Shown: positions 22,548-52,798, numbered from the stretch's first letter. The stretch: 64,000 nucleotides of DNA from Candidatus Yanofskybacteria bacterium (GCA_003514055.1 DOSG01000002.1:13985-77984); one strand, 5' to 3'. Notes: generated by a model not told the origin, from the sequence alone. A program made the numbers and translations.

Positions 22548-22628
22548 TTTTCGAGTGCGGGCTGTATTTTCCTGATGGAAAATCACCCTCTCGCTCGGCG
22601 CCGTCGCGCCTGCGCGGGCCTCTCAAAA
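22548..22628 (+). repeat. Copy A of an ~80-nt structured intergenic repeat family, inside the 23S-5S spacer
   Basis: tttcgagtgcgggctgtattttcctgatggaaaatcaccctctcgctcggcgccgtcgcgcctgcgcgggcctctcaaaa; matches copies at 44.1, 50.9 and 52.7 kb. Confidence 0.75.
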
Positions 22629-22675
22629 CCGACACTCCCAGCTACTCTGGTAGTGTCAGAAAGATCGTGTTTAGT

Positions 22676-22788
22676 GTAAGGTAGCTATACCAAGGGTGCT
22701 CCACCTGATCCCATTCCGAACTCAGAAGTGAAATCCCTTATGGCCCATGATAGTCGGTTTTCCCGGCGAAAGTAGGTAGCTGCCTCAC
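22676..22788 (+). rRNA. rrf: 5S ribosomal RNA
   Basis: ccacctgatcccattccgaactcagaagtgaaa ... gtaggtagctgcctcac aligns to bacterial 5S; helix I pairs with G.U wobbles. Confidence 0.85.
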
Positions 22789-22867
22789 ACTGATCACGAT
22801 TTTTAGTTACTTGCTAATGAGTGTACTACGTGAGACTATATGTCTAGTTCTTTTTGGAGTAAACACG

Positions 22868-23071
22868 ATGACTAAAAGGCGTATATTGATGCTTAATATA
22901 ATCGGTTGGATATTTGGTATTATATGGATTGCCGTGCTTATCATGGGGCTCTTTATCGATGATTTGGCATCTAATATGCCGTGGCTGGGAGCTCATTTGA
23001 TCTCTGGGGTTATCGTAATTATAATTTGTGCAATAAAATACCGCGAGGCTTTGTCTTTCGGAGGTAACTAG
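22868..23071 (+). CDS. Small 2-TM membrane protein, hypothetical (start chosen downstream of the 5S 3' end)
   Basis: ORF with two hydrophobic helices; no recognisable family. Confidence 0.4.
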   Translation: MTKRRILMLNIIGWIFGIIWIAVLIMGLFIDDLASNMPWLGAHLISGVIVIIICAIKYREALSFGGN

Positions 23072-23072
23072 T

Positions 23073-23098
23073 GGGGCTAATCAGCCCTTCTTTTTTTA
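23073..23098 (+). terminator. Weak rho-independent terminator
   Basis: gggct-aatc-agccc then ttcttttttt. Confidence 0.45.
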
Positions 23099-23125
23099 TG
23101 TTGGTTTGATAATATAAGAGTACAT

Positions 23126-23953
23126 ATGGATAAAAGGTCGGCCAAGCAATTCTTCATAGGCGCTATCTATCTGATCATCTTTGCTCTGTTAGCATATGGT
23201 ATTTATGCTATGTTCTTTAAAGTTGTCCCAACATGTACCGATAGTATTCAAAACGGCAAAGAGGTTGGAGTCGATTGTGGCATCCAGGCTGGATGTGAAC
23301 CATGCGGAGAGGCGATTAAACCAATAGACATAATATCTAGCCAGCTAATCAAGGTAAATGAAGGTGACTATGACTTTGTAGCGCAAGCTACTAATCCTAA
23401 CACCGAGCTTGGATCGTCGAGAGTTGATTTCGATTTAGTATATAAATCTAGCGATGGCACCGAGAAGATAAGCCCAGATTTTTTCTATATCGCTCCAGGC
23501 CAGACAAAATACATAGTTAGGCAGAGAGTCCAGATAGAAGATATAGCGTCTGTTGAAATTAAAATTAAGAACGCCGCATGGAGTAAGCTAGATATTGCGA
23601 CTGAACCTGTTAATTTTGTTGTCAAAAAAGATTATGTCGTAGTCAATGCCGATGGTGTCCATAGTCAGGTTCTGGGGACTGTATATAACCCATCAAATTA
23701 TGATTTGAGCAACGTAGATGTAGCCGTTGTTTTATATGGCGAAAGTAATAAGATAATAGCTGTAAATAAGACTGATATAAAAACGTTAAATTCTCAGAGT
23801 GAAAGACAGTTCAAGGTTTTCTGGACGAAGCCATTTGCGGGGACTTATTACCGAGCCGATGTCGAAGTTACTACTAACCTGTTTGATAATTCCAACTTCA
23901 TAAAAGCCCATGGATCAACCGAGGAATTTCAGAGAATTTACGAGAAGAATTAG
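23126..23953 (+). CDS. Membrane-anchored extracytoplasmic protein, hypothetical (two similar beta-rich halves)
   Basis: N-terminal TM then Cys-containing segment (CTDSIQNGKEVGVDCGIQAGCEPCGE); no family recognised. Confidence 0.55.
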   Translation: MDKRSAKQFFIGAIYLIIFALLAYGIYAMFFKVVPTCTDSIQNGKEVGVDCGIQAGCEPCGEAIKPIDIISSQLIKVNEGDYDFVAQATNPNTELGSSRVDFDLVYKSSDGTEKISPDFFYIAPGQTKYIVRQRVQIEDIASVEIKIKNAAWSKLDIATEPVNFVVKKDYVVVNADGVHSQVLGTVYNPSNYDLSNVDVAVVLYGESNKIIAVNKTDIKTLNSQSERQFKVFWTKPFAGTYYRADVEVTTNLFDNSNFIKAHGSTEEFQRIYEKN

Positions 23954-50451: not shown

Positions 50452-50566
50452 TCTTGACTTAAAAAAATCTACGACTATAATTAGCACTTAAGATATAAGA
50501 GTGCTAATTTTATTCGTAATCAATAGGATTAATTGGTTACGGGTTTGGTTGGCATATAAAATAAAC

Positions 50567-50860
50567 ATGTTAAAACCGCTATCTGATCACGTGGTACTGG
50601 AGCCAATCCGAGAAGAAAAAAAGAAAGGAGGGATAATCTTACCCGATACTTTAGATAAAGAAAGATCTGAGAAGGGCAAAGTGATTTCCGTGGGTCCTGG
50701 CAAATACGATCCGGCAGTTGCCGGAGGCAAAAGGATGCCTCTGCAGGTAAAGAAGGGCGATGTAGTTCTATTCACCAAGTATGGCCCGAACGAAGTTAAG
50801 ATGGATGGTAAAGAATATCTAATCGTCAAGGAAGACGATATCTTGGCAATAATAGACTAA
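50567..50860 (+). CDS. groES: Co-chaperonin GroES
   Basis: LKPLSDHVVLEP...; start set at MLKP. Confidence 0.93.
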   Translation: MLKPLSDHVVLEPIREEKKKGGIILPDTLDKERSEKGKVISVGPGKYDPAVAGGKRMPLQVKKGDVVLFTKYGPNEVKMDGKEYLIVKEDDILAIID

Positions 50861-50896
50861 TTAAAACCTAAACTTAAAAACGATCAGTAATGTGCA

Positions 50897-50977
50897 TTTC
50901 GAGAGGCCCTCGCAGGCGCGACGGCGGCGAGAGAGAGGGTGATTTCTCAGTAGAGAAATACAGCCCGTACTCGAGAA
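50897..50977 (-). repeat. Copy C of the ~80-nt structured repeat family, in the groES-groEL spacer, bracketed by aatgtgc/gcacatt
   Basis: Reverse complement ttctcgagtacgggctgtatttctctactgagaaatcaccctctctctcgccgccgtcgcgcctgcgagggcctctcgaaa. Confidence 0.75.
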
Positions 50978-51004
50978 GGGCACATTGCCGATCGTGCTAA
51001 CAAT

Positions 51005-52636
51005 ATGTCTGCTAAACAAATTTCATACAAAGAAGAAGCTCGCGAAGGTCTAAAGAGAGGCGTAGATAAAATCGCTAATGCGGTTAAGGTCACTCTCGGT
51101 CCAAAGGGCAGAAACGTGGTTTTAGACAGGGGCTATGGTTATCCAGTTATCACTAAAGATGGCGTGACCGTAGCTAAGGAGATCGAGCTAAAAGATAGAT
51201 TTGAGAACGTTGGCGCCGAATTAATAAAAGAAGTCGCATCAAAGACGAATGATATCGCTGGCGACGGAACCACAACGGCGACCGTTCTAGCCCAAGCCCT
51301 TGTGGCCGAGGGTTTTAGCGCTGTTAATTCGGGCGCAAACCCGTTGGCCCTAAAAAGGGGGATGGAAAAAGCCTTGAATTGGGTTGTTGATTATCTAGAC
51401 AAAAAGAAGCAAAAAGTTACAGGCGAAAAAGTCAGAGAAGTCGCATCCATATCTGCAAACGATGAGGTCATTGGAAAAATGATAGCCGATGTTTTTAATC
51501 AGGTTGGAAAAGATGGCGTGGTTACAGTTGAGGAATCTCAATCCGCCGAAATGTCTAAAGAGATGGTTGAAGGTCTACAGATAGATAGGGGCTATGTCTC
51601 GCCCTACATGATAACCAATACAGAGAGGATGGAAGCTTCTTATAATGATGTTCAGATACTGATAACCGATAGAAAGATATCCTCAATTCAGGATATCGTG
51701 CCATTACTCGAAAAAATTTCAAAGAGTGGCAGAAGAGAGCTTATGATAATTGCTGAAGATGTCGATGGTGATGCGCTTACGACTTTAATCGTTAACAAGC
51801 TTAAGGGTAATTTCTCTTGTTTGGCCATCAAGGCTCCGGGCTTTGGCGATCGTAAGAAGGAGATGCTAGAGGACATCGCCATAATTACTGGCGGGCAAGT
51901 TATAAGCGAAGAAAAAGGCATGAAGCTTGAAGCGGTGGAGCTAAATATGCTAGGTGGAGCTCGTAAGATGGTCGCCTCGAAAGATAGCGCCACTATAATC
52001 GGCGGCAAAGGCAAAAAGGTAGAGATAGACAAAAGAGTCGCTCAATTGAAATCACAAATTGCAAAGGTAACTTCTGAGTTCGACAGAGAAAAATTACAGG
52101 AGAGAATGGCTAAACTTGCTGGCGGAGTGGCCGTCATTAAAGTCGGAGCTACAACTGAAACTGAGATGAAAGAGAAGAAATTCAGAATTGAAGATGCGGT
52201 GAATGCCACTCGTGCCGCTCTTGAAGAAGGTATTGTTGCTGGTGGTGGGGTGGCTTTATTCGAAGCTGCCAAGGAGTTGTCGGTCAAATCAATAAAAGGC
52301 ATGGCGGAATTTGGCGACGAAGCCAAGGGCTTGGCGGTTATAAAAGCAGCTCTTGAAAAACCGGTACGAGCTATAGCCGAAAATGCCGGCAAAGATTCTA
52401 ACGAAGTCATAACCAAACTATTTGCTTCGGAAAATGGAATCGGATTGAATGCGGCAACTGGCGAGTATGTCGACATGATAAAGGCGGGAATTATCGATCC
52501 CTTGAAAGTTGTCAGGACTTCATTGGTGAATGCTGTGTCGGTGGCATCGATGATACTTACAACCGAAGCCGTGATAACTGATATCCCAGAAGAGAAGAAA
52601 GATAAGATGCCGATGGGTGGCATGGGCGAGTATTAA
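51005..52636 (+). CDS. groEL: Chaperonin GroEL
   Basis: Full GroEL homology; C-terminus MPMGGMGEY. Confidence 0.97.
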
Positions 52637-52676
52637 TCATTTTTTAAAGTCACGAGAAAGGGCATAGGTATGGGTT

Positions 52677-52798
52677 TTTCGAGTACGGGCTGTATTTCTC
52701 TACTGGGAAATCACCCTCTCCCTACAGAGACTTGGAGGATGGGCTAAAGCACCATCCCTCCGAGGCGGCGCCGTCGAGCCTGCGCGGGCCTCTCGAAA
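52677..52798 (+). repeat. Copy D of the repeat family, carrying a nested 45-nt hairpin insertion, inside the stem-loop of the groEL terminator
   Basis: tttcgagtacgggctgtatttctctactgggaaatcaccctctcc[ctacagagacttggaggatgggctaaagcaccatccctccgagg]cggcgccgtcgagcctgcgcgggcctctcgaaa; flanks gggcatagg...cctatgccc-ttttt. Confidence 0.75.

Follow-up and report, generated by a model that had tools for sequence, protein, structure and literature searches.

A Modular Palindromic Repeat Dispersed Among Intergenic Spacers of Candidatus Yanofskybacteria

Introduction

The interspersed extragenic palindrome is a well-known kind of bacterial element. In Proteobacteria, repetitive extragenic palindromic sequences (REPs), with the related BIMEs and REPINs, are short and noncoding, occur in both orientations, and are mobilized by Y1 transposases called RAYTs (REP-associated tyrosine transposases); REPs often lie at the 3' ends of genes and within operons, are built of mosaic modules, cause no target-site duplication, and form stable stem-loops in mRNA. 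The ERIC/IRU and YPAL repeats of enterobacteria are imperfect palindromes of ~127 bp, found in transcribed intergenic regions in either orientation; ERIC is noncoding, gains longer variants through insertions at fixed internal sites, and has an unknown mobilizing enzyme. The Correia/NEMIS elements of Neisseria and the bacterial miniature inverted-repeat transposable elements (MITEs) are 100–160 bp long, exist in short and long forms distinguished by an internal segment, carry terminal inverted repeats, and are co-transcribed with their neighbors as long double-stranded RNA stems that can be cut by RNase III. Here we characterize, by sequence comparison and folding, an element that resembles all of these and is present in four copies in a window of 64,000 nucleotides of DNA from Candidatus Yanofskybacteria bacterium (GCA_003514055.1, DOSG01000002.1:13985-77984).

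The element also differs from each of them. REPs are simple imperfect hairpins of 20–40 nt with a 5' GTAG and REPINs are inverted doublets, whereas the element has a core of three to five helices, no conserved GTAG, an outer stem specific to its locus, and no RAYT found nearby. It is unrelated to ERIC in taxon and sequence, and its core is a multi-branch junction rather than one long imperfect helix; location within locus-specific outer stems or inside terminators has not been reported for ERIC. Correia elements and MITEs have conserved terminal repeats and a TA or direct duplication, whereas the termini of the element are its least conserved part and no direct duplication accompanies it. Like the element, the intervening sequences (IVSs) of 23S rRNA are extended stem-loops that replace the tip of a helix; they do not prevent the host helix from forming and are tolerated for that reason. 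The element, however, was found only in spacers, including the 23S–5S spacer, and never inside an rRNA. The palindrome-associated transposable elements (PATEs) derived from IS200/IS605 share with the element a nonautonomous nature, the lack of target duplication, and subterminal hairpins readable by Y1 on single-stranded DNA, but the element has no likeness to the sole IS200-like ends seen, no target tetranucleotide, and no strand bias.

Results and Discussion

Four copies of the element in the window

Copies of the repeat had been placed at 22548–22628 (+), 44091–44173 (−), 50897–50977 (−), and 52677–52798 (+) in a preliminary description made from the sequence alone, and all four were confirmed. 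Their shared consensus also held: each of its 23-nt halves, 5' TTCGAGTACGGGCTGTATTTCTC and 3' GCGCCTGCGCGGGCCTCTCGAAA, matched the window in exactly those four places with three or fewer mismatches, whereas 0.00 matches were expected for either half from dinucleotide shuffles. A covariance model built from 12 distinct copies (R1) found only the same four, designated A through D, and no other site scored strongly when filters were switched off.

Copy A (short form, + strand, 22528..22647, core 22548–22628; R1 score 137.6 bits) is in the 23S–5S rRNA spacer and has an outer stem of 19 bp (GAGTAGTTGGGAGTATCGA / CCGACACTCCCAGCTACTC). Copy B (short form, − strand, 44079..44185, core 44091–44173; 119.1 bits) fills the spacer between an SBP_bac_5 gene (44192–45982, −) and a phosphoglucose isomerase gene (43115–44059, −); its outer stem, GGTGG/CCACC, is weak. 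Copy C (short form, − strand, 50880..50995, core 50897–50977; 123.2 bits) occupies the groES–groEL spacer, antisense to the groESL operon, with an outer stem of 16 bp (ACGATCGGCAATGTGC / GCACATTACTGATCGT). Copy D (long form, + strand, 52657..52818, core 52677–52798; 122.9 bits) is at the tip of the groEL terminator, AAAGGGCATAGG ... CCTATGCCC followed by TTTTT. The insert of 42 nt that defines its long form was located at 52724..52765 (+) from an alignment (A1) and from the fold. The larger inverted repeats reported to surround the copies, agtagttgggagt/actcccagctact, aatgtgc/gcacatt, and gggcatagg/cctatgccc with a T-run, were present as well.

Two other sites in the window are related to the element. 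A broader covariance model (R2), run without filters, gave 25.1 bits (E ~7e-4 over the whole window) to a sequence of 165 nt at 46640..46804 (+) in the holin–UvrC spacer. It has a predicted fold of −62.9 kcal/mol (z −5.2), an outer stem (GGATAATCACTTGT/ACAAGTGACTATCC), and two hairpins, one formed by GTCAGAATTTC/GAAATTCTGAC and the other having a CAGTCG-type loop, and a relative (L113) has a member of the family in the same spacer. We tentatively regard this sequence as probably a distant fifth member, noting that its paired outer stem supplies much of the score. The second site, found in a repeat-family search, is a fragment of the 5' end of the element at 40801..40818 (−), reading TTTCTTGAGTACGGGCTG on the − strand, which abuts the phosphoglucomutase terminator (40761–40795). 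A loop-free palindrome at 40841–40908, with 34-bp arms that are 88% complementary, adjoins this fragment where the phosphoglucomutase and RNase J genes converge. No further copies were found within 10 kb on either side of the window.

Anatomy of the element

The whole unit, including its stems, is a hairpin of 105–165 nt. The short form has a core of ~81 nt and the long form has 42 nt more; both recur on other groundwater contigs. The size of ~80 nt first assigned to the repeat was thus too small: the core copies stand as given, but a semi-conserved stem outside them also belongs to the element. Counting inward, the outermost layer is a locus-specific inverted repeat of 6–10 bp, often perfect. 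It encloses the semi-conserved stem, approximately GGATATGAC/GTCAYATCC with a recurrent A·C mismatch, and then the closing stem TTTCGAG/CTCGAAA, whose pairing had been pointed out before and is present. Inside the closing stem, GAGTAC-GG leads to hairpin 1 (GGGCTGTATTTCTC-loop CTNCTG-GAGAAATCACCC), which is followed by the junction CTCGCTC, by hairpin 2 (GGCGC-C(A)GTC-GCGCC), and by CTGCGCGGGCC, which returns into the closing stem. The core is therefore closed by its own terminal stems, so that the whole unit folds back on itself. The closing and semi-conserved stems amount to terminal inverted repeats of the MITE type, with an outer part far more variable than the core.

The junction also accepts optional inserts: the long form has its 42-nt insert there, and copy 1 of the relative L098 has another palindrome. 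The 42-nt insert adds two small hairpins (TCTC..GAGA and GGAGGATGG..CCATCCCTCC) between hairpins 1 and 2; it is also present in loci L004, L005, and L008 and, among the sequences collected, never occurred outside the element. The conserved motifs of the core are GAGTACGG, the hairpin 1 loop CTNCTG, CTCGG..C(A)GTCG..CCTGCG, and 3' ends like AAGCCTCT. Between copies of the main type, identity averaged 87% in the core and fell to 35%, near random, in the outermost 13 + 13 flank columns; despite this low identity, 85.8% of cells in the helix formed by these flanks were paired.

Folding and covariation

Structure, orientation, and pairing were counted over 16 copies. In the alignment of these copies, 90.5% of cells paired, compared with 70% in shuffles and 37–49% in slid controls. 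In hairpin 1, where 98.9% of cells paired, eight of the 12 pairs changed on both sides, as did three of the five pairs of hairpin 2. This alignment was fitted to the structure model; alignment A1, made by MAFFT only, gave the same covariation. The compensatory changes that had drawn attention to the repeat, ATTTTCC/GGAAAAT vs. ATTTCTC/GAGAAAT in hairpin 1 and GGCGC/GCGCC vs. GGCTC/GAGCC in hairpin 2, are real, and further compensatory variants (ATTTTTC/GAAAAAT, GGCAC/GTGCC, and GAGCC/GGCTC) occur in other contigs. Predicted RNA folds of the window copies with their flanks ranged from −40 to −66 kcal/mol (z −2.9 to −6.9), and DNA folds of the copies had z of −5.7 to −8.0; as a transcript, the element would be a stem-loop of −40 to −83 kcal/mol. 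The structure is as much a feature of the DNA as of the RNA.

Distribution in related genomes

The host is a candidate phyla radiation (CPR)/Parcubacteria genome from groundwater. Genomes of CPR bacteria are ~1 Mb and have very short spacers. The GroEL encoded at 51005–52636 is 100% identical to that of Candidatus Yanofskybacteria bacterium GW2011_GWF1_44_227, and the nearest GTDB species representative has a GroEL identity of only 77%. Exact proteins of the host recur on contigs of many metagenome assemblies, at least one of them labelled groundwater. The window encodes housekeeping functions (a ribosomal protein operon, rpoBC, ftsK, recA, ssb, RNase J, uvrC, and groESL) and a 23S–5S rRNA unit (23S end at 22461, 5S start at 22677).

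The exact core pattern had 0 matches in 185,579 GTDB species representatives and was present on 12 JGI metagenome contigs, which represent eight distinct copies of both short and long form. Diverged subfamilies have two copies in a species with 84% GroEL identity (L098/L117) and at least five in L113–L116 and L002, a species 92% identical to L098/L117. Two copies of a diverged form are in the more distant metagenome-assembled genome L030, the only appearance of the family in a GTDB representative, and a relative with 80% GroEL identity had no copy in 21 kb. The element is specific to the Yanofskybacteria lineage of CPR.

A known RNA family was ruled out. At gathering thresholds, Rfam matched only the 23S, 5S, and tRNAs of the window, and searches of Rfam 15 with copy A and loci L006, L008, and L002 at E up to 10 gave no match to the element apart from one to shuA_thermo on hairpin 1 (17 bits, E 3.9), which is noise. 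There was no blastn match in plasmids or phages; the only two matches in viral contigs (L093 and L094) were rejected as chance, being hairpin 1 alone inside a coding region with the rest of the element missing. The literature that we searched had no description of interspersed repeats of such a kind in CPR/Patescibacteria. That the repeat had not been recognized as a described element agrees with the Rfam, plasmid, phage, and literature searches; the family, its host phylum, and the nested hairpin-tip architecture without target duplication appear to be undescribed.

Turnover and exchange between strains and species

Copies of the element appear, vanish, flip orientation, and swap modules between close strains and species. 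Occupancy changes rapidly, and sites that differ in it were found in comparisons with close strains and related species (L111, L013, L101, L098, and L113). In strain L111, whose GroEL is 98.9% identical, the groES–groEL spacer is without copy C and contains a different AT-rich hairpin instead; a short-form copy follows groEL in the same strain, oppositely oriented and with other flanks. The groES–groEL spacer is 144 nt in the window vs. 1–2 nt in L013 and L101 and 16 nt in L098, and the isomerase and SBP genes, 132 nt apart in the window around copy B, abut in L098. As a strain-level empty site for copy B, the sole variant contig (L123, 99.96% identical) was rejected; it carries the copy.

The holin–UvrC junction gave an empty and a filled allele. 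The empty junction in L098 reads ...TTTCAATC-GCGTAGGCCTA-TCTACCAAG; in L113, ~125 nt that include both arms of an 18-bp stem replace 11 nt of it. In L098, the same 18-bp stem (CCCAGTTA...) is found around a copy at another locus. A second L113 copy of that subfamily has the core and inner stem in common, but not the outermost 8–10 bp. Modules are exchanged as well. L002 and L113 belong to the same species, with flanking genes ~93–96% identical, and in the same spacer the 3' halves of their copies are near-identical whereas hairpin 1, the closing stem, and the outer stem are wholly different. Hairpin 2 of copy D, GGCGC/GAGCC, is a hybrid of two variants, and truncated and nested pieces of the element also occur.

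A conserved structured repeat is thus exchanged between co-occurring groundwater species and turns over between strains 99% identical in GroEL. This turnover and exchange imply that even these streamlined genomes carry active selfish or recombining noncoding DNA and that their spacers are hot spots of change. In practice, the covariance model can flag copies so that they are not taken for novel riboregulators, and the copies can be used as strain markers in metagenomes.

Association with hairpin tips

The suggestion that the repeat targets hairpin loops accounted for part of the data. The window has about ten element-free, perfect palindromic terminators of 17–20 bp with an A-tract/GC stem/T-tract design, and copy D is inside a terminator of exactly that design (AAAGGGCATAGG...CCTATGCCCTTTTT). 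At the position of copy A, the 23S–5S spacer of L118 has a plain 12-bp hairpin, GTTGATTGCGAA-tgtaag-TTCGCAATCAAC, that ends 29 nt before 5S; the hairpin bearing copy A ends 26 nt before 5S. The suggestion was not the whole story, however: a whole hairpin with an 18-bp outer stem arrived in L113 where L098 has none, and that outer stem recurs at another locus in L098, so pre-existing loops cannot explain all of the copies. The T-run of an intrinsic terminator follows copy D, after groEL, and follows copy C only on the strand antisense to groESL; there is none after the stems of copies A and B and of most metagenome copies.

Other palindromes of this lineage were recorded in the course of the comparison. 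Unusually long, perfect or near-perfect palindromes, with arms of 17–20 bp, loops of 0–8 nt, and mostly the A-tract/stem/T-tract design, are at gene ends at 12906–12945, 18378–18417, 32333–32373, 34669–34706, 35808–35849, 52828–52875, 56522–56562, and 60864–60899; these are probably bidirectional terminators. Directly 3' of the groEL stop codon, L098 (11638–11900) and L113 (11638–11915) have a nested, multi-layer palindrome of ~230–270 nt, and where its outermost arms (AATTTCCCGACCCCATTTTCTC... / ...GAGAAAATGGGGTCGGGAAATT) vary from one species to the other, a change on one arm is matched on the opposite arm. The helix-25 insertion of the window 23S rRNA (19650–19730) is another hairpin repeat, AT-rich (TTTAG/CTAAA-rich) and unrelated to the element. 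It is ~88% identical over 35 nt to the hairpin in the groES–groEL spacer of L111 (1567–1702) and is also related to that spacer in L030 (1083–1240). The AT-rich repeat, the nested palindromes, and copies A and D indicate that hairpin modules of this lineage end up at the tips of other helices. With its conserved core, stems that differ by locus, nesting at tips, and a second repeat shared with rRNA, this lineage offers a system for studying the origins of rRNA IVSs and palindromic terminators.

Origin and spread of the element

We conclude that the element behaves as selfish or recombining DNA and not as a dedicated regulatory RNA. It is probably a new, noncoding, nonautonomous, modular palindromic repeat, similar to REP/BIME, ERIC, and Correia/MITE elements and seated at the tips of hairpins. 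For its spread we infer a trans-acting enzyme that would recognize the conserved core and loops and copy the element without target-site duplication. A new copy would enter the single-stranded tip of extruded hairpins, for example those of terminators or of the rRNA spacer, and the composite of host stem and element could subsequently be duplicated together, accompanied by gene conversion among the copies. Copying of composites would result in a gradual fall of similarity from core to periphery, outer stems that travel, and "onion" palindromes. Insertion would lengthen the host hairpin without breaking it, so terminators and spacers would keep working; presumably a genome this compact can tolerate the element because the paired ends extend the host hairpin. 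Any effect of the transcribed element as RNA would probably be generic only, in termination, 3'-end protection, or processing by double-strand RNases.

Several results weigh against this reading. The flanks of the 16 copies, inspected by eye, showed inverted repeats but no recurrent direct target-site duplication, and they had no conserved target motif. No mobilizing protein and no autonomous copy, with the core halves around an open reading frame (ORF), was found among the sequences collected; profiles of the half-elements detected no halves separated by an ORF in ~84 kb around and including the window or in the other collected loci, and no transposase was found within those ~84 kb. The same stretch has just four to five copies. 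Because relatives were collected via GroEL, the recurrence of copies around groESL is biased. Insertion at hairpin tips and arrival of whole hairpins each cover only part of the cases, and the strong covariation and the loops and junctions kept across diverged subfamilies also fit selection for function.

On a bolder interpretation, the element could be a structure-guided mobile module that integrates specifically at the single-stranded tip of extruded DNA hairpins, or of RNA hairpins followed by reverse transcription, with its shape and two conserved loops being recognized rather than a target sequence. Each insertion would add a layer, and in this way the "onion" palindromes, the copies within terminators, and the IVSs in rRNA helices of these CPR genomes would be built up. 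We regard this as unlikely, though as the best placed of the alternatives. If true, integration at hairpin tips would be a mode of transposition for which no enzyme has been described, and it would give ultra-small genomes a general means of gaining rRNA IVSs and remodeling terminators.

DNA element or functional RNA

Next in standing, and more doubtful, is a functional structured RNA under selection, either a cis-acting module for processing, stability, or termination or a small RNA that binds protein. This would fit the compensatory changes in both core hairpins, the loops CTNCTG and C(A)GTCG and the junctions kept in diverged subfamilies, a modular build with optional hairpins at one junction like that of many RNAs, the very stable fold, and the location of copies inside highly expressed units (the rRNA operon and groESL). 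The orientation of the copies argues otherwise. Relative to the neighboring genes, 11 of the 16 are sense and 5 antisense, in upstream, between, and downstream positions. The genes next to copies include those for rRNA, GroESL, a sugar isomerase, an ABC binding protein, DnaB, IMP dehydrogenase, a penicillin-binding protein, ribosomal protein S1, a DsbA-like protein, and an M16 peptidase; these are unrelated housekeeping genes that share no theme. The fragments and the differences in presence and orientation between close strains also speak against a functional RNA, as do the lack of an Rfam match and of any predicted promoter-like site within copies B, C, and D in the stretch scanned.

The pairing data point the same way. 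A G·U pair in copy D had been taken as a sign of structure at the RNA level, but G·U does not outnumber A·C among the modelled pairs of all copies (18 vs. 23), and that argument fails. When G·T is allowed, the reverse-complement strand folds better in 14 of the 16 copies, without relation to the direction of transcription; this is due mainly to one inherited A·C position in the semi-conserved stem. Of the original picture, a structured, dispersed intergenic repeat present in both orientations is retained, and a mobile module acting at the RNA level is not, given the mixed orientation and the G·U count. A gene-specific cis-regulatory RNA was ruled out by the mixed orientation and the incoherent neighbor genes. 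A special association with groESL was discounted as sampling bias; the metagenome copies that were found by pattern adjoin unrelated genes.

Possible palindrome dynamics without a dedicated enzyme

Less probable again, in our judgment, is an origin that needs no dedicated enzyme. Template switching during replication and gene conversion between palindromes, aided by DNA uptake and recombination, would correct quasi-palindromes and extend their arms outward, so that the family would be a by-product of palindrome dynamics. In both L098 copies the outer arms are perfectly complementary (18/18), and copy 1 has a left arm that includes the stop codon of the upstream gene and a right arm exactly reverse-complementary to that arm. 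The change of both arms together in the large palindromes behind groEL and the mosaic and hybrid copies would also be accounted for, and RecA, SSB, and a ComEC-type competence protein are encoded nearby. Left unexplained is the spread of a nonpalindromic core, conserved at 87%, to unrelated loci and species. Moreover, at the filled L113 site compared above (L113c), the empty allele has neither arm, which means that local flanks did not serve as the template for the arms there. For the same reason we rejected inverted duplication of the local flank at insertion, which fits L098 copy 1, where the arm overlaps the stop codon, and fails at L113c.

A possible Y1 transposase partner

The spacer in which L098 has a copy contains, in L113, an IS200-like insertion sequence (5766–6290) with a TnpA gene at 5834–6262 (142 aa, Y1_Tnp, PF01797) and its own end hairpins; a degenerate copy of the element remains at L113 ~5262–5385. 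The end hairpins, ATCCGCGGC..GCCGCGGAT and CCCCGGCC..GGCCGGGG, bear no relation to the element, and both they and TnpA occurred at a single locus among the sequences collected; a link between the two was therefore rejected. No Y1 gene was found in the neighbors scanned or in the annotations of the window and its ~10-kb flanks. In the alignments there was no conserved GTAG at either end of the element; GTAG is present only in the reverse-strand loop of some variants of hairpin 1 (CAGTAG vs. CAGCAG).

That the element is single-stranded-DNA hairpin cargo of a Y1 (HUH) transposase, either as an IS200/IS605-derived PATE or with a RAYT partner like that of REPINs, and that it would leave and enter sites as folded single-stranded DNA with no target duplication, is the least probable of the readings considered: the absence of target-site duplication, the two subterminal hairpins with conserved loops, the better folding of one strand, and the Y1_Tnp gene beside a degenerate copy would suit it, but it is opposed by the absence of 5' GTAG and of a conserved tetranucleotide next to one end, by the results for Y1 genes and IS ends given above, by the lack of strand bias relative to replication (two copies on + and two on − within a uniformly positive GC skew, a weak test with n = 4), and by the pairing of the two ends with each other, which is not a known feature of IS200/IS605 ends.

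Other features of the window and related loci

Additional observations were made at loci near the copies and in the relatives. Upstream of groES, at 50454–50508 of the window, is a near-consensus promoter, TTGACT-16-TATAAT, followed by a CIRCE-type (heat-shock operator) inverted repeat, TTAGCACT-N11-AGTGCTAA; the same operator is present in L098. At L101 15245–16666, 4 kb from groEL, a reverse transcriptase gene (RVT_1) is beside a bAvd-like gene, and the two are probably a diversity-generating retroelement; this contig has no copy of the element in 21 kb. A gene for a DUF11-domain protein in the window (ORF 16421–18361) contains a long run of 6/12/18-nt tandem repeats at 16900–17400 (GACACC/GACGCC/AACGCC).

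The 23S gene of the window is 3449 nt long (19013–22461), and both ARAGORN and Rfam called a tRNA-Met inside it at 20441–20516. This suggests that the 23S gene is split by an internal spacer containing the tRNA. The equivalent place in the 23S gene of L118 has two tRNA calls (1707–1779 and 1792–1864) together with a group I intron and a LAGLIDADG ORF.

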